Source of the DNA: Candidatus Helarchaeota archaeon
GTDB taxonomy: Archaea; Asgardarchaeota; Lokiarchaeia; Helarchaeales; RDOG01
NCBI GenBank assembly: GCA_019058315.1
Contig: JAHPZH010000004.1
Span: 224,001 to 288,000 of the forward strand
DNA: 64,000 bases
Direction: 5' to 3'
The number at the start of each line of letters is the position of its first letter. The first letter of the stretch is position 1. A program made the translations under genes and the position numbers. Shown piece after piece: positions 41,495 to 55,528 of this stretch. The notes under the pieces were generated by a model. That model saw only the letters and a list, made by a program, of their open reading frames with translations, did no database searches and was not told the origin of the DNA.

Positions 41495-43420
41495 ATGTAT
41501 CAAAAATATTTACTTGGAGGAATTGGAAGTTTAATTTTTACGGCTACTTTTTTATTGGCGGGTACCATTGGCATGCTAGTTGGATCATTACCTGCTTTAG
41601 CGATTATAAATTTTATTATTGCTTCTATTAGTTTAATTTTTATAAGTCTTGGGTTTCGCGAATCTTATCAAATACACCAAATAAAAGATTTAGATACCCT
41701 TTACAAGTTTTTTTTGGTATTTGGAATTCTTTTTGGTCTTAATGCTTTTGCATCTTATATACCAATCATTGTTACTGGCATAATCTTAATAAAATTAAAA
41801 AAAATCATGAGATATCAAAATTTAAGTATAGCTACTGGATTGATAGCTTTAATTTGTGGATTTTTTAGTGCAATTGTTTTAATAGTCTTATCAGCTCTCC
41901 TTCCAAGTCATCATGGATTTACTTGTATTCAATTCCATTGGATAATTTGTGGATTCTCAGGAATTTTGATTGCAATCTTATTTTTTAAAGGATATGGAGA
42001 AGATTTTATCATAAAAGAAGGGGAAGAACTTCTCATTCATAAGGAAGAAATTGAAGAACCGCTAATTGAAGAATCGGGAATTTCATTCACCTATAAAGGC
42101 CAGCAAATTGTCTATATAATAATTATTTTGATCTTAATAGTTTTAGATATTGCTTTTATTATAGATATACTTAACCCAATCTATAGGAATAGTGTTGAAT
42201 GGAGAAATTTCTGGGGTGTATGTATTGTAATTTTTTCATTAACTATAATTTTTACAATTTTACTCATTAGAGCTTCAAAGAAATTAAGGGAGGAAGGATC
42301 GGTTCGGGATTACCTTATAGCAGCAAGTAGAAGAAAGAAGGGTGCTATAGAGGCAAATAAAAAAGGAAAAACTGAAAGAGCGATTATAAGGTTGAATAAA
42401 TCAATCGAATTCTTAGAAAAAGGGAAGATCGAAGCAAATAAATATAATCCATCGTTAATTCCGAAAATTGATGATGAAATTGAGATAATACAATCTTATA
42501 TATCCAATTTTTCTACAGAAACTATAATTTCTACCGAAATAAGGACTCCTACTGAAAAAATAACTCCCCCTATTGAAGCAGATTCAAGAAGGTATGTTGT
42601 GAAAAAAGATATTATTCTTAAACGTGGAGGCGAAATTCAAGGAGGAAAATATATTTTTAAAATAAAAGTCGAAAATAATTCCAGTTTTAACATCACAGAT
42701 TTAAATTTTCAAATTATTTCTTATCCTAGAGATAGTATTAATCTAATTGGGGACAAATTTCGCGAGATTTCAAAATTAAATGCCGGAGGGCTTGTTAGTC
42801 CGACTTTTGAGTTTCAACCTACAAGTGATTGTATTGTAGGAACTATTCATTCTACCGTTTCCTATATAGATCATTCAAATAATTTACATACTGAAAAAGT
42901 TCAGCCTCATGAGATTTCCATAGTCTGTGGTCTATTACAACCACGAAAAATTGATGTTAATGAATTCATAAAAGTTTGTCAGGAATTATTAGATTATGAA
43001 AAAGTAGGAGAGGAGATAAAAATACCCTATAATTCAAAATTGATATTTGAAAAATTGAAAGTGCTTTTACCTGACCAAAACTTCATGTTCGTTACAAATC
43101 CTGAATCAAAATTAATAGGAGATACATTTTTTGGAGAAATTAATGGATTTGCGGAAGGTAAATTCAATAAAAAGTGTGTAGGTTTAAAAATAACCATTAC
43201 AGGAAATACAAATCAAAATTCTAGCATAGGAATGATTGAAGTTTTTGCTCAAGATAGATCAATGCTCCCTTCACTAATTTCAGAATTGAGTGAAAGAATA
43301 ATATATTGGTACTGTAAACGATGTAAGGGGCCTTTAGAAATGGAAGATGTTGAAAAATTATTAAGAAATGAATTAATTAAATGTAGATATTGTGATCATG
43401 TGATGAGTAAATTATTATAA
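41495..43420 (+). CDS. Multi-pass membrane protein with cytoplasmic MIT-like bundle, adaptin/COP appendage-like region and C-terminal Zn ribbon
   Basis: About 7-8 hydrophobic helices, then a helical bundle, a beta-rich FKIKVENNS...VSY region, a LQPRKIDVNEF linker and CKRC...CRYC. Confidence 0.7.
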   Translation: MYQKYLLGGIGSLIFTATFLLAGTIGMLVGSLPALAIINFIIASISLIFISLGFRESYQIHQIKDLDTLYKFFLVFGILFGLNAFASYIPIIVTGIILIKLKKIMRYQNLSIATGLIALICGFFSAIVLIVLSALLPSHHGFTCIQFHWIICGFSGILIAILFFKGYGEDFIIKEGEELLIHKEEIEEPLIEESGISFTYKGQQIVYIIIILILIVLDIAFIIDILNPIYRNSVEWRNFWGVCIVIFSLTIIFTILLIRASKKLREEGSVRDYLIAASRRKKGAIEANKKGKTERAIIRLNKSIEFLEKGKIEANKYNPSLIPKIDDEIEIIQSYISNFSTETIISTEIRTPTEKITPPIEADSRRYVVKKDIILKRGGEIQGGKYIFKIKVENNSSFNITDLNFQIISYPRDSINLIGDKFREISKLNAGGLVSPTFEFQPTSDCIVGTIHSTVSYIDHSNNLHTEKVQPHEISIVCGLLQPRKIDVNEFIKVCQELLDYEKVGEEIKIPYNSKLIFEKLKVLLPDQNFMFVTNPESKLIGDTFFGEINGFAEGKFNKKCVGLKITITGNTNQNSSIGMIEVFAQDRSMLPSLISELSERIIYWYCKRCKGPLEMEDVEKLLRNELIKCRYCDHVMSKLL

Positions 43421-44772: not shown

Positions 44773-45690
44773 TTAATCTTCAAAATAAAATCCCATAAGA
44801 ATTTCAAATACCCTATTCGCAAGTTCGGGTAATTTCTCTAAAATTAATTTTTCAGTTCTGGAATTTCTAGAATATGCCATGATATAGTATTCTTCATCTT
44901 CGTAATTGAATTTTTGAAAATACCCTCTTCCCCCTTTTAATTCAATTTGTAGTTTTTCTGGTGGATTTCCTTGAGCAGCTTGTTTAGCCCAAGTACCAAC
45001 GAATTGTTGAAATCCTTCATCAGTAATTTTAAGATTTTCTTCGTTGCTAGCGTGTATATCAAGAATTAAAAAATTTGTATCAACGAGAATAACCCCAGAA
45101 GAGAAGGTGGCTCTTGCAAACTCTTTTAATATTTTATTAAGCACATCTTCTATCTTTCTAATCTTTCTAAAAGCTCCTGAAAATGAGAATATAATTGACC
45201 AATAATCATTAATAGAAGTTTCAAAATATTGAGCTTTTTTTATCGCATCAAAATTTTCTTTAATCTTTTTTACCCTAGAACGAATTCTGGGATCACTTTT
45301 AATCTCTGGATCCATTTTATGAATAAAAATAAAAATTTTATCTGGATCTATAGATTGAATTTCGGGTAAATTAAATAAATTCTTATAATATTCAATAGAA
45401 CTATCCAAATTCTCCATATCTTGAGCATCAACGAAATATAACATTAAGTCTATTTGGCTCAAATATCTATCTGGGTTTTTAAGATAATCCTCTCGATAAA
45501 TTTGTTGTCCACCATAATCGTAAATATAAAGATCAGAACCTAAAATTCTAATCTTGTTTCTATCAACTCCAACAGTGGCTCTAATATCATAAAGAGCCCT
45601 AAATTCTTGTTGTAAGGCTTCTAAATACGAAGTTTTTCCAGCTGCAGCTAGACCCAGCAGAGCGATTTTGCTTGCTTCTTTTGTGGACAT
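44773..45690 (-). CDS. Rag/Arf-like small GTPase with C-terminal roadblock/longin-like domain
   Basis: G1 GLAAAGKTS, G2 AT, G3 DYGGQ, G4 HKMD, G5 TSI; about 120-aa alpha/beta C-terminal domain. Confidence 0.88.
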   Translation of the reverse strand: MSTKEASKIALLGLAAAGKTSYLEALQQEFRALYDIRATVGVDRNKIRILGSDLYIYDYGGQQIYREDYLKNPDRYLSQIDLMLYFVDAQDMENLDSSIEYYKNLFNLPEIQSIDPDKIFIFIHKMDPEIKSDPRIRSRVKKIKENFDAIKKAQYFETSINDYWSIIFSFSGAFRKIRKIEDVLNKILKEFARATFSSGVILVDTNFLILDIHASNEENLKITDEGFQQFVGTWAKQAAQGNPPEKLQIELKGGRGYFQKFNYEDEEYYIMAYSRNSRTEKLILEKLPELANRVFEILMGFYFED

Positions 45691-45840
45691 TATAAAAATC
45701 TCATAAAAATTATGTTAAGATTAATATTATTTCATTTGAAAAAAAGTTGATGGAACTAAGGATAAATATAAAAATCGATAAAAATACAATAATTTATATT
45801 AAATTTAATAAAAAACAATTATTAATGAGTTAGAACGAAA

Positions 45841-46608
45841 ATGGGATTAATTTATTCAATTGAATTTGCTCTAAACCAATTAACGGGGTACTATTCCACT
45901 AAAGATCCATCAGGATTACTTACTCCCATTCTAGCATTTTCAATTTTAGGAGTAACCGCTTTAAGTATAGTAAATTTATTTAAAAAATATAAAGAAACTC
46001 ATGAACAATCAACATTGTCATGGGCATTATCATTATTGTTTGTAGAATTAGCTTTAACATTTATAATCATGGAAAATATTAGCTATACTATTTTAGGTCA
46101 ACCTGATTTTGGCAGAATAATGTCAGTATCGGCAATTAGTTGTATTATTTGTGGAGTTATTACTCTTGATAACTTTGCATTAAGTATGACATACCCAAAG
46201 TATAAGAATAAATTAATATTAATTGTGGCAATTTTAGGAATAATATCCATTCTATTAATAATTTATGCAAATATATTAGGACCTCCTTACGCAGAAGTTC
46301 GGGGTTTTGTATTAATATATGACCTTAATATTAGCTATTTTATTCTTGCATATGTTATACCTAATTTTTTCGTTGGTCCAATAATTTTCTTCTATTTCGC
46401 TTCAAAGATCCGTGAAGAAAATAGACCAAAATCCAATCTATCTTTATGGATGGGAACAGGATTAACTTGCTTTGGATTAGGTTATGTTTTAACATTTATT
46501 CCAATTATAGCGATATCTTTATCATTTTTCTTAGCAACTACTATAATAATGTACATCTGCTTTTCTATGCCTGAATGGTTCAAAAATAAGATCGGTTGGG
46601 TTACTTAA
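45841..46608 (+). CDS. 7TM membrane protein, family A copy 1
   Basis: Seven hydrophobic helices; C-terminal PEWFK amphipathic tail. Confidence 0.85.
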   Translation: MGLIYSIEFALNQLTGYYSTKDPSGLLTPILAFSILGVTALSIVNLFKKYKETHEQSTLSWALSLLFVELALTFIIMENISYTILGQPDFGRIMSVSAISCIICGVITLDNFALSMTYPKYKNKLILIVAILGIISILLIIYANILGPPYAEVRGFVLIYDLNISYFILAYVIPNFFVGPIIFFYFASKIREENRPKSNLSLWMGTGLTCFGLGYVLTFIPIIAISLSFFLATTIIMYICFSMPEWFKNKIGWVT

Positions 46609-46788
46609 ATCGGAGCTTTAAAATAAAATTCATTCTTTGACAATTTTATTCAACAAAATTATGATAAATCTAATATTTCATTTAAAAAAAGTCGATTTTA
46701 ATAAAAGTATATATAATAAAATCGATATCTATAAGATATTCCATATTAAATTTAATAAGAAATAATCTAGTAATGGACAAGATAGATA

Positions 46789-47556
46789 ATGGGAATAATT
46801 TATTCTATAGAATTTTTTTTCAACCAACTAACGGGGTATGTTTACAATCGTGATCCGTCATTTTTCTTAGTTCCTTATCTTGCTTTAGCAATATTAGGAG
46901 TAACCGCTTTAAGTATAGTAAAACTATTTAAAAAATATCAAGTAACTCATGAACAATCAACTCTATCATGGGCATTTTCGTTATTATTTATAGAATTTAC
47001 TCTAATATTTTTAATTTTAGAAAATATTAGCTATACTACTCTAGGTCAACCCGATTTTGGCAGATTAATGTCAACAATGGCATTTACTTGTGTTATTTGT
47101 GGAATTATTACTCTTGATAACTTTGCATTAAGTATGACCTACCCAAAACAAAAGAATAAATTATTAATAATAGTGGCGATTTTAGGAATAATATCCCTCC
47201 TATTAGTAATTTTTGCAAATATATCAGGACCTCCATATGCAGAAGTTCAAGGATTTGTATTAAAACTTGATATTTATATTACTATTTTTGTTTTTGCATT
47301 TATTATACCGAACTTTTTCGTTGGTCCAATAATCTTCTACTATTTCGCTTTAATGATTCGAGAAGAAAATAGACCAAAATCCAATCTATCTTTATGGATG
47401 GGAATAGGATTAACTTGCTTTGGATTAGGCTACGTTTTAACATATATTCCAATCTTAGCAATAGCTTTTTCATTTTTCTTAGCAACTACTATAATAATGT
47501 ATATCTGCTTTAATATACCTGGATGGTTCAAAAATAGGATCGGTTGGGATTCCTAG
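46789..47556 (+). CDS. 7TM membrane protein, family A copy 2 (tandem paralog)
   Basis: Same length (255 aa) and colinear with 45841-46608. Confidence 0.85.
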   Translation: MGIIYSIEFFFNQLTGYVYNRDPSFFLVPYLALAILGVTALSIVKLFKKYQVTHEQSTLSWAFSLLFIEFTLIFLILENISYTTLGQPDFGRLMSTMAFTCVICGIITLDNFALSMTYPKQKNKLLIIVAILGIISLLLVIFANISGPPYAEVQGFVLKLDIYITIFVFAFIIPNFFVGPIIFYYFALMIREENRPKSNLSLWMGIGLTCFGLGYVLTYIPILAIAFSFFLATTIIMYICFNIPGWFKNRIGWDS

Positions 47557-47568
47557 TTAGCGGGGGAC

Positions 47569-48783
47569 TTAACTTAATTTCTCTATTTTTTTATAAATAT
47601 CATCAATTTCTTTTTTTATTAGCTGGTAATCACCTAATTTAAGCCCTTTAATGTTTAATTTTACTTTTAATAATTCGATTTTTTTAATATATCCCTCAAT
47701 TTTTCGTTTTTTACGAAGTTGGATGAATTCTTTTATTCCTTTTTCCCCTTTTTTGATTAATTCCCGCTCTTCATCATTTAAAATATGTTGGTCTATATAT
47801 AAATTCTTTAATTTAGTGAGATTCTCCAAACCCTCTATCTCTTTAATTGGGTTACCATAAAGAATTAATTCTTCTAATTGGTGAAGATTTTCTAAACCTT
47901 CAATTTTTGAAATCTTATTCTGATAGATAGACAAAAACTTCAATTTGGAAAGGTGTGCTAAACCTTCAATTTTTGAAATTTGGTTGCTATAAAGTGCTAA
48001 CCATTCCAATTGTAAGAGATTTTCTAATCCTTCTATTTTTTTAATTTTATTTTGGCCAATACTTAAATCTATTAAATGTGAAATTGCATCCAAATTCTCA
48101 AGTTTCGAGATTTTACAAAAAGAGAGCTCTAATTGTAGCAATTTTTTAAGATCCTCTAATCCTTCTATCTTTGTTATATTGTGTGTTCCTAAGTATAGCA
48201 CCTCTAATTGTGGAATAATATCAAATCCCTCTATTTTTTTAAATTGATTTGCGACTAGATATAAATTTTTTAATTTAGATAGTCCCTCCAACCCTTCTGT
48301 AGTTTTGATTTCATTATGGCTAATCTCAATTTGCATTAATTCTGATAAATTTTCAAATCCCTCAAATTTTTTTATTTGATTATTATAAAGAGCTATTTTT
48401 TTTAGTGTAGTAAGATTGTTTAAACCTTCTATCTTGGAGATGTTGTTTTCATGTAACCTTAATTCTTCTAATTTTGATAGATTGTCCAACCCTTCTATTT
48501 TCTTTATTTGATTATAACCAAGGTTTAATATACGTAATTTTGATAAAGAGTTTAAATTATCTATTTTTAAAATTTTATTACGATGAAATTCTAATTTTTC
48601 TACTTGTACAAATTTTTTTATTTCCGTAGGGATTTTGTTTAACCCTCTATCATTTAATTTTAATTTAATTACATGCCCCTCTTTATTAACCTCAAAATCT
48701 GAACTATATAATTTAAATTTGCTATCTAAATTCTTTATAGCGTCTCTTTCCTCCATACTTTTAATGATTCCAATATCATTCAT
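47569..48783 (-). CDS. SDS22-like leucine-rich repeat protein
   Basis: 22-aa repeats such as NQIKKIEGLDNLSKLEELRL. ATG 48783 preferred. Confidence 0.9.
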   Translation of the reverse strand: MNDIGIIKSMEERDAIKNLDSKFKLYSSDFEVNKEGHVIKLKLNDRGLNKIPTEIKKFVQVEKLEFHRNKILKIDNLNSLSKLRILNLGYNQIKKIEGLDNLSKLEELRLHENNISKIEGLNNLTTLKKIALYNNQIKKFEGFENLSELMQIEISHNEIKTTEGLEGLSKLKNLYLVANQFKKIEGFDIIPQLEVLYLGTHNITKIEGLEDLKKLLQLELSFCKISKLENLDAISHLIDLSIGQNKIKKIEGLENLLQLEWLALYSNQISKIEGLAHLSKLKFLSIYQNKISKIEGLENLHQLEELILYGNPIKEIEGLENLTKLKNLYIDQHILNDEERELIKKGEKGIKEFIQLRKKRKIEGYIKKIELLKVKLNIKGLKLGDYQLIKKEIDDIYKKIEKLS

Positions 48784-49091
48784 TAAAAATACCAATAATT
48801 GCAATTATTTTATACTTTTTTATTTGGACATTAATGATATAGTAAATAATATTTATAATAAATTCAATTGATTGGGATAAATGGAGTAATAAAGTGGATA
48901 TCAATGAGATATAATTTAAATTTTTCATAGACTCGCAAAAAAATCAGAAAATTGTCACGAATTTCGTATAGAAATCCTTTTATATAGCTCAAGACATAAA
49001 TTTTTAACGATATACAACCTTAATAGGGAAATTTAATGAAAAAATAGATCTAATCAAATTGGACCTAATTAGGGAAATCGGAGCTAAAATT

Positions 49092-49169
49092 GTGAGCCTT
49101 ACCCTCGTTTCTCATAATTTAACCCCCCCTCTCCCTATATTCCCTATTTTTTCCGAGGGTGGGGCTCAT
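49092..49169 (+). other. GC-rich 16-bp stem; candidate structured RNA or miniature element
   Basis: GTGAGCCTTACCCTCG pairs with CGAGGGTGGGGCTCAT, using G-U pairs on the + strand. Confidence 0.45.
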
Positions 49170-49181
49170 CAAAATTATAAT

Positions 49182-50114
49182 TTAACCTTGATAAATAGCA
49201 TAAGTTGTAGAAAAATCCCTTTTTTTTAATGCATCCCTTTGAATGAAGACGAAAATTCGCCCCACATCGCCCCATTCCATTTGAGTTTTGTGATCTGAAT
49301 CAATTTGAAACAACTGTCTCCACTTAATACTCTCCTTGTCTATTCTTGCTTTTTCTGATTCATCTAGATTGGTGTATTTTTCACCACTATGTATCTCTTT
49401 CCAAGGAGTTCCCTCAAGACGTAATTGGCAATCTATCTCCATATTATTATCTATTCCATCAGAATATCCAAGCAATCTATGCGTTATAAACATAGGGAGC
49501 CTTCTCATTTTATCTTCTTTTCGATTGTAAAATTTCGAAATTTCACTATATAAACTAATATATAAGTCTTCTTCTTTATCTTTTAGTTCGAGATCTTTTA
49601 AAATTATTGAACGATATCTAGGAAGATCCTTTTCTTTTGAAAATTTGACTGCACATGCTTTGAAAATACCCGCATCCCAAAGATCCTCACGAATATCAAC
49701 TAGTTGTTTGGGAGGTGAGATGCGAGAGAGCTGGGAAGAATCCCCATCAAAATATAAAACCTCTGAGACTTCATTATAATTTTCGTCATAAACACAATCA
49801 TGAACAATGAATCTAATAGTGTCATAAAAAAAATAAAGCATACCAGAAGGTGGAAAGACTTTTTCTTCATCATACTTGGAAAGCTCATATAAATTAAATT
49901 GAGCGATAAAGGAAAGAGGGAGATCCTCATTTTTTGGCCAATCCAAGTCCTTGGGTAGATCAGGAGATCCTCCTATTTTTGATGCACCGATTCTAATTTT
50001 CTCTTCAGGAACTATTTCTGTCCTAACTCTTATAGAATCTCCTAATAAAGGTAGAATCCTATCCTTTATACTTGAAAATTTTCCAGAGTTAATTAATTTA
50101 ATAATTTCGGACAT
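49182..50114 (-). CDS. YwqG/DUF1963 family protein
   Basis: GASKIGGSPDLP...WP...PLSFIAQFNL, GMLYFFY, HRLLGY, LFQIDSD...MEWGDVG. Confidence 0.88.
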   Translation of the reverse strand: MSEIIKLINSGKFSSIKDRILPLLGDSIRVRTEIVPEEKIRIGASKIGGSPDLPKDLDWPKNEDLPLSFIAQFNLYELSKYDEEKVFPPSGMLYFFYDTIRFIVHDCVYDENYNEVSEVLYFDGDSSQLSRISPPKQLVDIREDLWDAGIFKACAVKFSKEKDLPRYRSIILKDLELKDKEEDLYISLYSEISKFYNRKEDKMRRLPMFITHRLLGYSDGIDNNMEIDCQLRLEGTPWKEIHSGEKYTNLDESEKARIDKESIKWRQLFQIDSDHKTQMEWGDVGRIFVFIQRDALKKRDFSTTYAIYQG

Positions 50115-50266
50115 TTATGCAATCTTCTTTGGCCATTTCTTTCTATAATCTATAAAAATTGAAAATTTTTATTTCAGATTAAAATGAGCATATTGACAAT
50201 ATTAATATGTTTTTTATTGATAACAGCATTAATAAGAACAAAATGAGAGATTAATGAAAATTAGAG

Positions 50267-51109
50267 GTGATTGGGATATCACAATCAGAGGACTTCTATA
50301 AATTTCTAGCAATTTTTTTACAGCGATATTTTTACCAAATGACATCAGATATAATTTCTATTATAATGTTTGTTCTCGTTGGATTAGTTGTTGTTTCAAT
50401 TCCTGTTGTTTATTATGCATTTAAATTACAAGGGTTTGTTAAATATTCCAAAATGTGGAAACCGTGGAAAAAATTAGCATTTGGTTGGGCTTTAACAACC
50501 GTTGCAGGGATAGTAGGTCTGACAATTATTTTTATTATTTTTTATTTTACAGATTTAATTAAACAAGTTATTGTTCCATTAACAATTCTGGGAATAATTC
50601 TTTCCCCTCTAGTCATCATTATTTTGGTAATAATTATTATGACTATTGATGGAATACGTTCTTTTTATAAAAAAGCACAAGTTTCAGTTAATCCAGAACA
50701 GGAAATAAAGAAATTACGTTATATATTTTCAATTCATAATGAAGTTGGTGTGACTATATATCAAAGAAAATTGGGAGAGTGGGAATTGGAAACGGATTTG
50801 ATAGGAGGATTTTTAACTGCAATACAAAGTTTCAGTTCCGAAATCAAAAAAAAGAGGACTTCCATGCGAAAAATGGAATATAAGGATTTTGAAATTATTA
50901 TAGAACGTGGAAAATATGCATTTTTTGCTATTTTTATTGATGGAACCGAATCTTACTGGATACGGGATAAACTCAGTCTGTTTTCAAAGGAATTTGAAAA
51001 TCTATTCGAAGAATATTTAAAAGTTTGGACTGGTGAATTAACTGTGTTCGAACAATCTGAAAAAAACGAATTTTTAATTAATAGAATCTTTGAATTATAT
51101 AGAATATGA
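50267..51109 (+). CDS. 3-TM protein with C-terminal longin-like domain
   Basis: Three TM helices, then YIFSIH..GVTIY...DLIGGFLTAIQSFSSE...FSKEFE..F...L..WTG....F. Confidence 0.85.
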   Translation: MIGISQSEDFYKFLAIFLQRYFYQMTSDIISIIMFVLVGLVVVSIPVVYYAFKLQGFVKYSKMWKPWKKLAFGWALTTVAGIVGLTIIFIIFYFTDLIKQVIVPLTILGIILSPLVIIILVIIIMTIDGIRSFYKKAQVSVNPEQEIKKLRYIFSIHNEVGVTIYQRKLGEWELETDLIGGFLTAIQSFSSEIKKKRTSMRKMEYKDFEIIIERGKYAFFAIFIDGTESYWIRDKLSLFSKEFENLFEEYLKVWTGELTVFEQSEKNEFLINRIFELYRI

Positions 51110-51384
51110 GTTTAATGAATTAATTAAAAGAAAATATGGAACGAAATTGTATATAAAAGATCTTATTAGCTTGATTAATTTTAACGTATTTATTATCTTT
51201 TTCACTCCGTTTTAATAATCATTTTTTGAAGAACATTATAGTATTCAAAATTTTCAATAATATCATTTGAAATTTACTTATTATCAAAAATGAGAAAAAC
51301 AAACAATTAAAATTAAATTAGAACCCTTATCACTAAATCTTAAAACTTTTTTACAGAAAAGATGAAATTTTTCCTTTACAAGAA

Positions 51385-51406
51385 TAAGTAAAATTCATTT
51401 TACTTA
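51385..51406. promoter_or_regulatory. Inverted repeat TAAGTAAAA-N4-TTTTACTTA (putative operator), copy 1
   Basis: The same element occurs upstream of the paralogous gene. Confidence 0.6.
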
Positions 51407-51483
51407 AGATTTTTTAAATTCCGATGAATTATATAAATACAATATGAATTAATATATTGATTTTATATCAATCGGTGAATCAA

Positions 51484-52260
51484 ATGATCTCATTTGGAGA
51501 TAAAGTTTATTCATTTATCCTTACCGAAACTGGTTATATTGCTTCAGTTTATGGTCCTGAATTTTTTATTTTGGGATATATTGCGGATATAATTTGGGCT
51601 TCTTTATTTATTGCTTTAATTATTTTAATATTGAAAACTAAATTAACCTATGTTGAAGGATTTAGGAACAATTTTCTTATTGGAATTATATTATTATTGT
51701 TAGAATCCCTAGTATGGATTTTAAACTTAAGAATTTTTTTTGTTTCGTTTGCTGAAAATCAAGGTCCTGCAAGTCTAATTATGGCTTCTCTTTATATATC
51801 TGCTGGTTATTTTCTGATTCGTGGTTTATTAAAGCTAAATAATTATCTTGATACAATCATTGGAACTAAAGAACAAAGAAACAATTTAAATGCACTAATT
51901 TTTGCAATTATAATAACAGCTACTTATCAAGTTTCTGATACACTGGTTCATGGTGTTAATCCCCTTGGAATACCAAGTATAATATTAACTTCGACTATAT
52001 TCATTTCTCAATTGTATATTTCTATATACTCATTTTATTTGCACCGTGATATGAAAGATCTTAAAATAAATATGATGTTATATTTCGGAATCGGTTTTCT
52101 CTTTCTAGTTCTCATAATAGCATTTGGAAGTATTTTTGAATTTGATACATCTCTTTATCTTACAAGTATCGGTTATACCTATTTAGGTTTTCAGGTATTT
52201 TTAATTCTTGGATATCTTGACTTTAAAAATCGAATTTCAAAAATTAAAACTGAAATTTAA
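51484..52260 (+). CDS. 7TM membrane protein, family B copy 1
   Basis: Seven hydrophobic helices. ATG 51484 (MISFGD) matches the paralog start; track start is 51457. Confidence 0.85.
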   Translation: MISFGDKVYSFILTETGYIASVYGPEFFILGYIADIIWASLFIALIILILKTKLTYVEGFRNNFLIGIILLLLESLVWILNLRIFFVSFAENQGPASLIMASLYISAGYFLIRGLLKLNNYLDTIIGTKEQRNNLNALIFAIIITATYQVSDTLVHGVNPLGIPSIILTSTIFISQLYISIYSFYLHRDMKDLKINMMLYFGIGFLFLVLIIAFGSIFEFDTSLYLTSIGYTYLGFQVFLILGYLDFKNRISKIKTEI

Positions 52261-52375
52261 GAAGTTTACAAATGAAATATTCGAGAAGAAAAATAGTACA
52301 GTATATTCTGAAGAGCTTTAATATAATCTATTTTCAATAATATCATTTAATTTTTTCCCATAATTCCACAATTTT

Positions 52376-52397
52376 TAAGTAAAATTCTTTTTACTTA
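52376..52397. promoter_or_regulatory. Inverted repeat TAAGTAAAA-N4-TTTTACTTA (putative operator), copy 2
   Basis: Arms identical to copy 1; similar distance to the ATG. Confidence 0.6.
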
Positions 52398-52473
52398 AGA
52401 TTTTAAAAATCGATGAAATATAATAATAAAATGAATTTAAATTGATAATTCTACATTAATCAGGTAGTATTAA

Positions 52474-53253
52474 ATGATAATTGGATTTGGTGATACTGTT
52501 TATGCAGTTGATCTTCTAGACACAGGCCTTGCTATTTATAGTTATAGTCCTTTATATTATATTTTGAGAGATATTTCGCATATAATCTGGGCTTGTTTAT
52601 TTATTGCTTTATTTATTATAATAATTAAGACTAAATTAACTCATGTTGAAGGATTTAGGAAAAATTTCCTTATTGGAGTCATATTATTATTGCTAGCATC
52701 CTCAGTATGGGTCATTTTTTTAAGATTTTTTTTTCATTTGTACTATCAATTGATAAATCTTGTTAATCTAATTATGGCTGTATTTTTTATTACTTCTGCA
52801 TATTTCCTCATTCGTGGTTTATTAAAGCTAAATAATTATCTTGATTCAATAATTGGGACTAAAGAAAAAAGAAATAATTTAAGAGCATTAATTATTTCAA
52901 TTATAATCGCCGCTATTTATCAAGTTTATTATGTACTAGTGAGTGGTCTTACTTTCGCTATATTTACAAATATAATATTAATGTTAGCTATATTTACTTC
53001 TCAATTGTATATTTCTATATACTCGTTTTATTTACATCCAAATTTTAAAGATCTCAAAATAAATATGATGTTATACTTCGGAATCGGATTTCTCTTTCTA
53101 GTTCTCATATTAACATTTGGACAAATTTTTGCACTTAACGTGTCTTTAAATTTTACAAGTATCAATTTTTCCTTTTTGGCCTTTCAGTCATTTTTAATTC
53201 TTGGATATGTTGACTTTAAAAATCGAATTTCAAAAATCAAAGCTGAAATTTAA
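52474..53253 (+). CDS. 7TM membrane protein, family B copy 2 (tandem paralog)
   Basis: Colinear with 51484-52260. Confidence 0.85.
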   Translation: MIIGFGDTVYAVDLLDTGLAIYSYSPLYYILRDISHIIWACLFIALFIIIIKTKLTHVEGFRKNFLIGVILLLLASSVWVIFLRFFFHLYYQLINLVNLIMAVFFITSAYFLIRGLLKLNNYLDSIIGTKEKRNNLRALIISIIIAAIYQVYYVLVSGLTFAIFTNIILMLAIFTSQLYISIYSFYLHPNFKDLKINMMLYFGIGFLFLVLILTFGQIFALNVSLNFTSINFSFLAFQSFLILGYVDFKNRISKIKAEI

Positions 53254-53296: not shown

Positions 53297-55528
53297 TTAA
53301 TTCATCTCTTTTTCAAAATAATTCATCATTTTTTGATAAATTTGGGTTTTTTCGGGATTAGAGCTAGAATTCTGTAATTTTTTTATGATATAATATGGCA
53401 TAGATTTAGCCAGATAATTAAATTTTGGATTTCTATCGACAATTAATCTACCCTCGGCGTCTATACCATTAGCTTCGATACCATCCACTCTTATATTAGT
53501 TTTAATCACCTTTAGAACTTGAGAAGCTAAATGTGAGACTAAGACCGTACACGAATTATTTGATTCTCCTAACATTTCTAATATACTGCCAATAACTTTG
53601 GCAGCTGCGCCAGGCTCAGTTATTGCTTCTAACTCATCCACTAGAACTAATTTCTCCTTTTTAGAAATAATTATATCAGTAAAATTCTTTACGCTGGATT
53701 CAAACGCACCCGAGGAATTACTACCCTGGCTTTTTGAAAAGAAAAATAATTCGTTGAAGAGGCCAATATTAACAGCCTGTGCAGCAACAGGCAGTCCCAT
53801 CTGTGCCATGATAGTAATTTGTGCAATAGTCTGAAGAAGCGTAGTTTTTCCACCAGAATTGGCCCCGGTTAAAATGATTAAGTTATTTTTTATATCAATT
53901 CTATTTTCAAAGATAACTGGAATATTACCGACATGATAATTAATTTGTTTAATTTCAATATTTTGTTCATGCTTAAGAAATAGATTAATTCCTCCTTCAA
54001 AACTCAATCCTAGTTTATCCTCAACAAAATTTGGATAAGTTAAATTATAATCTTTCATTATTGATGAAATTGCCAATAATTCATCTAATTCGAATAAAAT
54101 ATTCAAAAGTTTTGCTACTAATGGCTTTACTGCACTCAAGTTTTTAGCAAGTTGAGTTAGAATTTCAAATTTTAGGATTTTTTCTCGTCTTATTAGGTTA
54201 TTCTTTAGCTTTTCAAGGATGAAATTGTCAGCTTCAATAGGAAAATTCATATCATTAGGATATAGTTCAAAAACAATCGAACTTTCCGGTGCTTCAAGGT
54301 TTAATCTTTCAATTAATTTTTCTCGAGCTTCCATTAGTATTTCCTCAATAATCCCCGCAATATCTAAAGGTAAAAACTCCATTAACGCATTTAAAGAGAT
54401 TGAATTCGAGTCGTCAACTGATTTTAATAAATTAAAAATTTGACCTCCTTCTAAAACTGCTTTAGATTTTTTTATCTCATTTTCTATCGATTCATTAATT
54501 TCTATTTCTTGATCTGCAATAATTCCATCAAAACTATTCACAATTTTTAAAGCTTCATCATATTCTGGGTAATTTTCCTCTTTAATTTCACCATCTTTAT
54601 CAATTTTTGCTAGGTTTAGTATAAGACCTTTTAATAATTCCATACTAATATCTTTAAATCCCTCCAAGGTTTCCTCGTCTTGCTTTAATTCTTGTTTTAA
54701 AATCTTAAATAGCTTATAACCTGCAATCAGAATATTATAATTGACTCCTAAAAAATCACAAATAACCGATTCAGGCAATAAATCAGTAACTGAAAATTCA
54801 TTAATATCTAAAAAAATAGCATTTTTAATTTGATCAGTAAAAGAATTATTATTATAATCATTCGATATAAAAATTACAAGATCAAATGAATTTAAATAAT
54901 CTAGAACTTTCTCACTTAGCGATTCTATTAATAATAATTTACAATATTTTTCAATATCGAGCTCTATTAATTCATTATACTGCTTTTTATTATCAGTTAC
55001 GATAATTCGATGTAGTAAGAGTTTATCTTTAAAAGTCTGAGGTTTAAATGGTTTAATTTTTTTTAGTAAAATTTTGATTTTTTCTATTGTTTCTTCATTA
55101 ATTTTATTCAGTTTTGAAAGTCTATTTCGATAATTTTCTAATCTAGATTTAATTATGTTTAATTTGGTAGCGGGTAATGGATACATAAGTGAAAATTTAT
55201 CTTTAATATATTGGGTTTGGGCATAAGATTTTAAAATTTCAATAATTCTATCATAGACTTTTAAAATGTCATCAGTCATCAAAATCTGGTTTGTGTAATT
55301 TGTATAAACTCCAGATTCATCATCTGAATGAAATTCTTGAATAATCTTAAGAGCCATTTTTTGCCCAATACCTTTTATCGATGAAATTTCACTAATTCTC
55401 GCTTCAGAAATCGCATTGATAACATTTTCTTCAGTTAAAAAATGATTAATTAATTTTTCAGAAATCTTGGGTCCTAATCCTTGTATTGATTGTATGATCC
55501 TTTGTTTTTGTATTACACCATTTTTCAA
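53297..55528 (-). CDS. Archaeal MutS-like protein (N-terminal HhH plus MutS ATPase domain; MutS2/MutS5 type)
   Basis: GLGPK and GIGQK HhH motifs; LTGANSGGKTT, QMGLPV, GAFES, VLVDELEAITEPGAA, VSHL. Confidence 0.88.
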   Translation of the reverse strand: MKNGVIQKQRIIQSIQGLGPKISEKLINHFLTEENVINAISEARISEISSIKGIGQKMALKIIQEFHSDDESGVYTNYTNQILMTDDILKVYDRIIEILKSYAQTQYIKDKFSLMYPLPATKLNIIKSRLENYRNRLSKLNKINEETIEKIKILLKKIKPFKPQTFKDKLLLHRIIVTDNKKQYNELIELDIEKYCKLLLIESLSEKVLDYLNSFDLVIFISNDYNNNSFTDQIKNAIFLDINEFSVTDLLPESVICDFLGVNYNILIAGYKLFKILKQELKQDEETLEGFKDISMELLKGLILNLAKIDKDGEIKEENYPEYDEALKIVNSFDGIIADQEIEINESIENEIKKSKAVLEGGQIFNLLKSVDDSNSISLNALMEFLPLDIAGIIEEILMEAREKLIERLNLEAPESSIVFELYPNDMNFPIEADNFILEKLKNNLIRREKILKFEILTQLAKNLSAVKPLVAKLLNILFELDELLAISSIMKDYNLTYPNFVEDKLGLSFEGGINLFLKHEQNIEIKQINYHVGNIPVIFENRIDIKNNLIILTGANSGGKTTLLQTIAQITIMAQMGLPVAAQAVNIGLFNELFFFSKSQGSNSSGAFESSVKNFTDIIISKKEKLVLVDELEAITEPGAAAKVIGSILEMLGESNNSCTVLVSHLASQVLKVIKTNIRVDGIEANGIDAEGRLIVDRNPKFNYLAKSMPYYIIKKLQNSSSNPEKTQIYQKMMNYFEKEMN

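Follow-up and report, generated by a model that had tools for sequence, protein, structure and literature searches.

Expanded families of stand-alone seven-helix membrane proteins in an Asgard archaeal genome and their possible link to longin domains and small GTPases

What are the two tandem pairs of small seven-helix membrane proteins at this locus, and do they signal through the GTPase and longin genes beside them? The locus lies in a 64,000-nucleotide stretch of Candidatus Helarchaeota DNA (hereafter the window), which spans positions 224001 to 288000 of contig C1 in a 5.79-Mb, 12-contig Asgard genome with ~4,940 genes. Pair A (genes A1 and A2) adjoins a gene for a Rag-like GTPase, and pair B (B1 and B2) follows a gene for a protein with three transmembrane (TM) segments and a longin-type domain; the original prediction, made from the letters of the window, saw here a repertoire like that of G-protein-coupled receptors (GPCRs), with the adjacent GTPase and longin protein as shared partners. 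We find that the pairs represent two families of stand-alone seven-helix membrane proteins, here called A and B, each confined to a narrow lineage and greatly expanded in copy number. The original reading was right in kind, in that these are receptor-shaped, diversified seven-TM (7TM) proteins tied to longins, and wrong in the specific partner and in its claim about pair A. The four genes are as follows.

45841..46608, + strand: A1, family-A stand-alone 7TM protein, 255 amino acids (aa); seven hydrophobic segments; tail EWFKNKIGW
46789..47556, + strand: A2, tandem paralogue of A1, 255 aa; 76% identity to A1, gapless
51457..52260, + strand: B1, family-B stand-alone 7TM protein; seven hydrophobic segments; tail DFKNRISKIK
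52474..53253, + strand: B2, tandem paralogue of B1, 259 aa; 64% identity to B1, gapless

The true start of B1 is probably the ATG at 51484, which would give 258 aa, because a database copy of the protein (P0010, 100% identity) has that length. Seven TM segments emerge in both families from hydropathy, whether computed on single sequences or on family alignments. Lys and Arg residues number 12 to 13 on loops 1, 3, and 5 plus the tail and 2 to 3 on the opposite side, and we therefore assign an N-out/C-in topology; the C-terminal longin domain of fusion homologues places the C terminus in the cytoplasm independently of the charge counts. The topology thus agrees with what had been predicted, as does the description of stand-alone 7TM proteins without a fused kinase or cyclase (A and B proteins have 255 to 267 aa and no extra domain), and the gene positions, the 150-bp gap between the GTPase gene and A1, and all quoted motifs were also found as given.

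The genome holds 26 family-A and 13 family-B genes, many of them in tandem arrays of two to five, and 36 of its 92 open reading frames (ORFs) of 220 to 290 aa with at least six hydrophobic segments (~40%) belong to one family or the other. No Pfam or NCBIfam model matches either. In a library of 1.84 billion clustered proteins, family A comprises 114 representatives; it is present in 5 of 201 sampled genomes of the phylum, weakly in four of them, and family B in only 1 of the 201 (this one), with four metagenomic or metagenome-assembled genome (MAG) relatives in the database. This sparse distribution limits any synteny test beyond close relatives. Database homologues of the 7TM proteins are labelled Promethearchaeota, Hodarchaeota, and Helarchaeota. 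A1 is 82 to 84% identical to two of the database proteins (P0001 and P0002) and groups with both in a quick tree of family A; by this sequence comparison it is the orthologue of the single-copy A gene of the relatives. Since those relatives carry one A gene, the tandem duplication is recent in this lineage (A1 versus A2: synonymous divergence [dS], 0.33; dN/dS [omega], 0.43). Homology between families A and B is unsupported, BLAST returning nothing and hhalign giving a probability of 5.9% (E 0.006 versus 0.039 for the reversed control).

Family A is tied to longin domains through fusions. Six of the 114 family-A representatives (364 to 384 aa) match the family in their first ~230 residues (E 1e-14 to 1e-21) and end in a longin domain (E 1e-33 to 1e-36), and in the quick tree they form one clade (support 99) inside a mostly stand-alone family. 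The genome under study encodes ~40 such fusions of 350 to 390 aa, in each of which a membrane half of seven segments precedes the longin domain at the C terminus. Aligned by hhalign, family A is collinear with the TM clusters of these fusions at probabilities of 90% (E 1.7e-6) and 64% (E 6.5e-5), compared with E of at least 0.02 for reversed-profile controls. At the level of sequence profiles, family A is the free-standing form of the 7TM-longin membrane module, and because fusion homologues exist, a Rosetta-stone argument speaks for a functional tie of the family to longin domains. The stand-alone proteins themselves (255 aa in A, 258 to 267 aa in B) have no match to the longin hidden Markov model (HMM). 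In our literature search, no paper connected Asgard 7TM proteins with longin domains or described 7TM-longin fusions. Elsewhere in the genome, at C5:1284350-1298550 (L018), six tandem 7TM-longin fusions, two Ras-family GTPase genes, and a five-gene family-A array lie within ~14 kb.

Families A and B share one further feature, a short cytoplasmic tail. Right after TM7, both end in (W/D/N)FK(N/R/K)(R/K)I, and the chain stops ~10 to 15 residues past TM7. In a scan of 4,944 genes, FK[NKRSQ][RK]I within the last 20 residues was found in 34, namely, 20 of family A, 11 of family B, and three encoding Lys-rich soluble proteins. The motif is absent from the 7TM-longin fusions, in which an ExxW-type linker connects TM7 to the longin domain. 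That A and B have this tail in common points to either a very remote shared origin or a cytoplasmic partner used by both. A longin-edge HMM scored the tail no better than control or shuffled tails, and we therefore rejected the idea that it imitates the first longin strand or is a remnant of it. The pattern also resembles the F(R/K)xx(F/L) with which GPCR helix 8 begins, a likeness that we offer as a lead only, not as a test.

The inner and outer faces of the proteins differ in pair B. Identity between B1 and B2 is 84% inside (47/56) and 27% outside (16/59; Fisher P 7e-10) at an unsaturated dS of 0.36, and omega rises from 0.20 on the inside (confidence interval [CI], 0.06 to 0.61) through 0.66 in the helices to 1.65 on the outside (CI, 0.75 to 4.0), with outside above inside by permutation (P 0.0075). 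The conserved inner and diverged outer face reported for this pair is thereby confirmed. The "same trend" reported for pair A is absent, with 76% identity inside (35/46) and 75% outside (46/61; P = 1) and omega of 0.53 inside versus 0.32 outside. It appears only family-wide: inner columns are more conserved across all 26 family-A paralogues (0.51 versus 0.33, P 6e-4), as they are across the family-B paralogues (0.52 versus 0.25, P 5e-8), and in this sense the 26 plus 13 paralogues, with an inner face conserved across each family, are the diversified repertoire that had been supposed. Such a pattern could also arise if these were variable surface proteins, engaged in self/non-self recognition or serving as virus targets or decoys, that diversify under outside pressure while the inner face serves membrane insertion or trafficking. 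Tandem arrays with recent duplications (dS 0.33 to 0.36), the outer omega of ~1.65 in pair B, and the lineage restriction of both families (5/201 and 1/201 sampled genomes) would fit; however, the outer loops are very short and expose little surface, pair A shows no outer diversification, and the longin fusions are left unexplained, so that we consider this explanation highly improbable.

The predicted fold is compatible with a receptor. Both models are weak (AlphaFold model of A, pLDDT 56 and pTM 0.56; AF2 model of B, pLDDT 69 and pTM 0.65), the latter comprising an N-terminal three-strand sheet followed by seven helices. The top 50 structural matches of each of these weak models are all GPCRs or microbial rhodopsins, with zero transporters or enzymes. 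For A, designed GPCR-like folds come first (Z 15.1), followed by class C receptors (Z 14.6 to 12.3), within a top-50 range of Z 15.1 to 10.6; the top Foldseek rows are all class C (best E 0.019), and a structure atlas returned TM-scores of 0.61 to 0.67 to the 7TM parts of 7TMR-DISM-GGDEF, HD-GYP, and GABA-B proteins. The B model matches a Heimdall rhodopsin best (Z 12.5) and GPCRs next (range, Z 12.5 to 8.9; best Foldseek E 0.051), and the structure-atlas search gave nothing above a TM-score of 0.28. Profile searches of 29 family-A and 17 family-B members gave no Pfam 7tm_* match, even with the threshold relaxed to E ≤ 10, and the Pfam models 7TMR-DISM_7TM and 7TM-7TMR_HD matched family A below threshold in all cases (best E 0.54, in 5/29 members, and 0.078, in 2/29). 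Neither family is a rhodopsin, because there is no lysine in mid-TM7; the conserved Lys of A (K248) and of B (K257) lies in the cytoplasmic tail after TM7, and Bac_rhodopsin has no Pfam match in either. A HisKA_7TM lead from a language-model atlas (0.88 and 0.80) was weak and was dropped when Pfam did not confirm it; the other atlas returns were unnamed clusters, Asgard ones for A. We tentatively describe the modelled fold as a GPCR/rhodopsin-like arrangement. Of the GPCR-like fold originally predicted, the part that stands is that the top 50 matches are exclusively GPCR or rhodopsin bundles, whereas the models behind them are weak and Foldseek E values are at least 0.019.

A bundle of this shape need not be a sensor. 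The proteins might instead be membrane anchors or adaptors that detect no external signal and just hold longin/GTPase modules at the membrane, as LAMTOR1 does for Ragulator or Yip1/PRA1-type proteins do on Rabs, while their outer loops drift unconstrained. The longin links would fit this equally well, as would the outer omega of pair B, whose CI is compatible with neutrality, the lack of asymmetry in pair A, and the short outer loops without a ligand-binding ectodomain. On the other hand, 39 stand-alone and ~40 fused copies are many for a passive anchor, the TM helices are moderately constrained, the bundle resembles receptor folds, and family B has a modelled outer N-terminal beta-sheet. We judge anchoring rather unlikely.

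We then considered the genes next to the two pairs, which had been put forward as their shared partners.

44773..45690, - strand: Rag/Gtr1-type small GTPase, 305 aa, G domain plus C-terminal extension, assigned by Pfam and PDB matches; divergent from A1
45691..45840, no strand: divergent intergenic spacer between the GTPase gene and A1, exactly 150 bp by ORF coordinates
47569..48804, - strand: leucine-rich-repeat (LRR) protein, 411 aa, convergent on A2; Pfam LRR_4, 1.6e-42; syntenic context
49182..50114, - strand: DUF1963 protein, 310 aa; Pfam DUF1963, 2.9e-39; syntenic context, also in L053
50267..51109, + strand: protein with three TM segments and a C-terminal longin-type domain (residues ~136 to 280), 280 aa, by hydropathy and profile matches

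The GTPase is Rag-like, as predicted: Pfam Gtr1_RagA matches at E 3.9e-21 (76 bits versus a cut-off of 22), and PDB matches include 8zla_A (3.7e-32), 8yl2_A (1.3e-30, residues 6 to 287), RagA (4e-13), and Gtr1 (2e-12, residues 7 to 272). Its sequence contains a P-loop (GLAAAGKTS), DYGGQ, and HKMD, and alignments extend through the C-terminal region to residue 272 (Gtr1, 8fw5_D) and residue 287 (8yl2_A) of 305. Two MAGs, one of Promethearchaeota (L049) and one of Helarchaeota (L053), have the same divergent GTPase/A pairing and also the LRR gene in the same position; in a third, of Hodarchaeota (L051), the GTPase is missing from this spot and the A gene directly adjoins an Fe-ADH gene. The relatives are 79 to 84% identical and keep the block Fe-ADH, GTPase, A, LRR, DUF1963, and because they are close and keep the whole block, the shared GTPase/A order reflects descent. 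The LRR and DUF1963 genes are part of this syntenic context, and we do not assign them to the 7TM system. The closest paralogous A pair, on contig C3, has no GTPase within 75 kb. Most likely, the Rag-like gene beside pair A marks inherited gene order and not a dedicated partner.

The other neighbour, the 3TM protein, has a Lys/Arg-rich loop 1 and a C-terminal domain of ~140 aa whose profile matches solved structures of TRAPPC1 (E 0.0066 and 0.0083) and AP-4 sigma (E 0.044). Among members of that domain, Pfam matches were Sybindin (2.4e-5), Clat_adaptor_s (0.014), and Intu/Fuz longin (0.015/0.031), weak singly and of one fold class. Since all matched families are longin-fold, the TM-longin identity holds at the sequence-profile level, in agreement with the initial call. 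The gene lies 347 to 374 bp upstream of B1. Its two closest paralogues, both on C3, have no 7TM neighbour, which leaves recurrence of the 3TM-longin/7TM pairing unsupported. A complex prediction for B1 with this protein scored 0.00, which weighs neither for nor against binding.

That both pairs are GPCR-like receptors signalling through precisely these two neighbours, the Rag-like GTPase and the 3TM-longin protein, is therefore very unlikely. In its favour are the divergent GTPase/A arrangement kept in L049 and L053, the 3TM-longin gene directly upstream of pair B, and a Rag-like gene near a family-A-type fusion in another locus (L063). These are outweighed by the isolation of the C3 pair from any GTPase, the Fe-ADH gene in place of the GTPase in L051, the close identity of the relatives, from which shared order is expected by descent, the lack of 7TM neighbours among the 3TM-longin paralogues together with the 347- to 374-bp gap between the longin gene and B1, and GTPase adjacency at chance level. 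The last point comes from permutation over gene order with 26 7TM arrays and all longin and GTPase genes of the genome, in which a GTPase gene immediately adjoins 1 of the 26 arrays versus 1.17 expected (P 0.70), the sole case being the one in this window.

Longin genes behave differently in the same tests. The genome contains 142 longin-domain and 117 small-GTPase ORFs, five ORFs carrying both. A longin gene immediately adjoins 5 of the 26 7TM arrays versus 1.47 expected (P 0.013), and a longin or GTPase gene lies within two genes of 10 of the 26 versus 4.3 expected (P 0.006). An earlier proximity count with the Gtr1 model alone (4/24 loci within 2 kb, P 0.025) used a post hoc threshold and was superseded by the test with all 117 GTPases. 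GTPases are the immediate neighbours of 6 of 40 fusion genes (1.8 expected, P 0.0095) and of 16 of 97 other longin genes (4.3 expected); in L063, a gap of 41 bp separates a family-A-type fusion from the Ras/Arf-family GTPase gene that follows it, and a Rag-like gene comes next. Of four distant genomes with a family-A-like gene, two have a soluble longin gene no more than two genes away from it. Of the longin link as first drawn, then, what stands is the fusion homologues of family A and a modest adjacency enrichment for A and B arrays, and what falls is the pairing with the 3TM-longin gene.

At C1:520743-525837, two B genes close a tight operon of co-directional genes separated by gaps of 9 to 91 bp. 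Ahead of them come genes for a longin protein of 279 aa, a protein of 136 aa, a GTPase of the Ras family (Pfam Ras, 1.1e-48), a protein of 214 aa, and a longin-containing protein of 361 aa. The 136-aa protein belongs to a family without a Pfam match that has four members in the genome, all in B loci, three of which (on C7) overlap a B stop codon by 4 nt.

Several side observations concern these gene runs and the longin proteins. With the gene for a 240-aa protein that follows the B genes, the C1 operon extends over C1:520743-526549 (L017:3744-9550; gaps of -11 to 91 bp), and its 136-aa protein is helical. An array of four family-B genes occupies C7:238543-243262 (L020:6544-11263); downstream of three of these genes, and overlapping the B stop by 4 nt in each case, comes an ORF for a soluble protein (135, 135, and 86 aa). 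In a genome of another family (G147 C8; L058:8424-10543), a family-A-like 7TM gene precedes a co-directional 124-aa ORF and the gene for a soluble 251-aa longin protein, and these three genes face, in convergent orientation, the gene for a 1459-aa protein that ends in a longin domain. In the genome under study, longin domains are C-terminal in their proteins, which have anywhere from 0 to 10 TM segments and include giants of ~1,100 to 2,600 aa.

Might the longin and GTPase neighbours nevertheless be incidental? The 7TM proteins could have an unrelated membrane function, as small transporters, channels, lipid-handling proteins, or biogenesis factors, and their neighbours could reflect the high density and regional clustering of longin and GTPase genes. 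There are 142 plus 117 such ORFs among ~4,940 genes, most arrays have neither kind nearby, the families belong to no Pfam or NCBIfam entry, and the fold evidence is weak. Against this, covalent fusions of the family-A module to longin domains are hard to explain by chance, neither model has a transporter or enzyme among its top 50 fold matches, and a tight operon unites B genes with longin and Ras genes. We regard an unrelated function as unlikely.

On the strength of the fusion homology, the modest adjacency enrichment, the one operon, and the common tail, we propose that the stand-alone 7TM modules act via a longin platform in trans on a small GTPase, a function that we infer rather than show and to which we give slightly less than an even chance. 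The A and B proteins would be receptor-like membrane modules. Their conserved inner face and tail would dock a longin-domain protein in trans, where the fusions carry the longin in cis; the longin would be the platform (exchange factor, GTPase-activating protein, or anchor) for one of the ~117 small GTPases; and the variable outer faces would correspond to different inputs.

A number of results weigh against this proposal. Binding, ligand, and nucleotide exchange are predictions. The fold rests on models of pLDDT 56 and 69, no Foldseek match reaches E 0.001, and Z scores of 12 to 15 are common among helical bundles. Family B has no homology to family A or to the TM halves of the fusions that hhalign can detect above reversed-profile controls, and a search for fused B proteins of greater length came back empty, which is weak evidence. 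More than half of the 7TM arrays lie farther than three genes from any longin or GTPase gene; the enrichment is only 2- to 3-fold given 142 longin and 117 GTPase genes, so that chance adjacency is not negligible, and the random-placement null ignores regional clustering of expanded families. The closest paralogues of the 3TM-longin gene stand apart from 7TM genes, and pair A is symmetrical. In pair B, the outer omega is not significantly above 1, and relaxed constraint therefore fits its outer loops as well as ligand diversification does.

How do families A and B compare with known systems? The nearest likeness is to the unannotated Asgard 7TM-longin fusions, with which family A shares a homologous seven-helix module and the same N-out/C-in topology; A and B differ from them in lacking the longin domain and in carrying the FK(N/R/K)(R/K)I tail, and the module of family B is not detectably related. 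Bacterial 7TMR-DISM_7TM-GGDEF and 7TM-7TMR_HD/HD-GYP receptors are the best atlas fold matches of the weak A model (TM-score 0.65 to 0.67), but A and B lack both a large extracellular sensor and any cyclase, phosphodiesterase, or kinase fusion, and the proposed output, a longin, is of eukaryotic type. Sensory rhodopsin with its transducer Htr is alike in outline, a stand-alone 7TM protein adjoining a separate small TM protein with a cytoplasmic signalling domain, and the best match of the B model is the Heimdall rhodopsin; A and B nevertheless have neither the retinal lysine nor a Bac_rhodopsin match, and the putative partner has a longin in place of HAMP/MCP domains.

Two eukaryotic comparisons bear on the proposed output. 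LYCHOS (GPR155) is a lysosomal 7TM sensor that acts through the longin-containing GATOR1 on Rag GTPases, and the logic of a 7TM sensor, a longin-containing GTPase regulator, and a Rag GTPase is the one considered here; its GPCR-like domain is among the fold matches of A (Z 11.0). The likeness is one of logic; that Z of 11 is unspecific among many GPCRs, and Rag-like adjacency in this genome is at chance level. Class C GPCRs (CaSR, mGlu, GABA-B, and GPR156) have the same topology and are the top solved-structure matches of the A model, but with Foldseek E of at least 0.019 on a model of pLDDT 56, and family A has no Pfam 7tm_3 match or Venus-flytrap domain. They also differ in that our analysis lists no heterotrimeric G protein for A or B, no search aimed at G-alpha having been made.

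Asgard "class C GPCR" and "7TM protein" structural clusters have been listed at catalogue level with no longin link (10.64898/2026.10.28.762692). Liu et al. described expansions of longin/roadblock proteins and GTPases in Asgard archaea and an operon of roadblock/longin, Rab-like GTPase, and DENN-domain genes, and their main text mentions no transmembrane partner of that operon (10.1101/2020.10.19.343400). The operon at C1:520743 resembles theirs and is here extended into two family-B 7TM genes. The main text of Eme et al. (2023) has no mention of 7TM or longin. The stand-alone 7TM families A and B are the new part.

Other features of the window are set apart from these families. The protein encoded at 41495-43420 (+ strand; 641 aa) has about seven TM segments in its N-terminal part, followed by a large cytoplasmic C-terminal region at the end of which lie two CxxC pairs; its sole Pfam match is a weak one to DUF7479, and it shares a ~140-aa stretch, which is not a longin domain, with a 1488-aa protein on C5. 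It was rejected as a longin protein, having clustered with longin neighbours solely via a different region of one giant protein. At 53297-55528 (- strand), the gene for a 743-aa protein with a Walker-A-like GANSGGKTT near its C-terminal third converges on B2. GC content is ~0.36 to 0.38 in the first 12 kb of the window versus ~0.25 to 0.33 in most of the remainder, with a bump of ~0.35 and strongly negative GC skew at 18 to 22 kb.

These families touch on two questions: how the coupling of seven-helix receptors to GTPase switches arose in eukaryotes, and what natively regulates the hundreds of small GTPases of Asgard archaea and feeds signals into them. A pathway from receptor to GTPase is plausible, though unproven. 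In its widest form, it would comprise a GPCR-shaped repertoire (39 stand-alone and ~40 longin-fused proteins), longin platforms docked by the FKNRI tail, and Ras-, Rab-, Arf-, and Rag-like GTPases, as a prokaryotic counterpart and possibly a forerunner of the logic of 7TM receptors and G proteins; we consider that wider picture possible but doubtful. The locus offers candidates with which to pursue it: a module found both longin-fused and free-standing, two expanded families with a conserved inner face, and a five-residue tail as a possible docking motif. Should the proteins not bind longins, families A and B would still account for ~40% of this genome's small multi-TM proteins of their size, with no assigned function. 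If their tail or inner loops do bind a longin that acts on a GTPase, they would be the first input layer for Asgard GTPase signalling.

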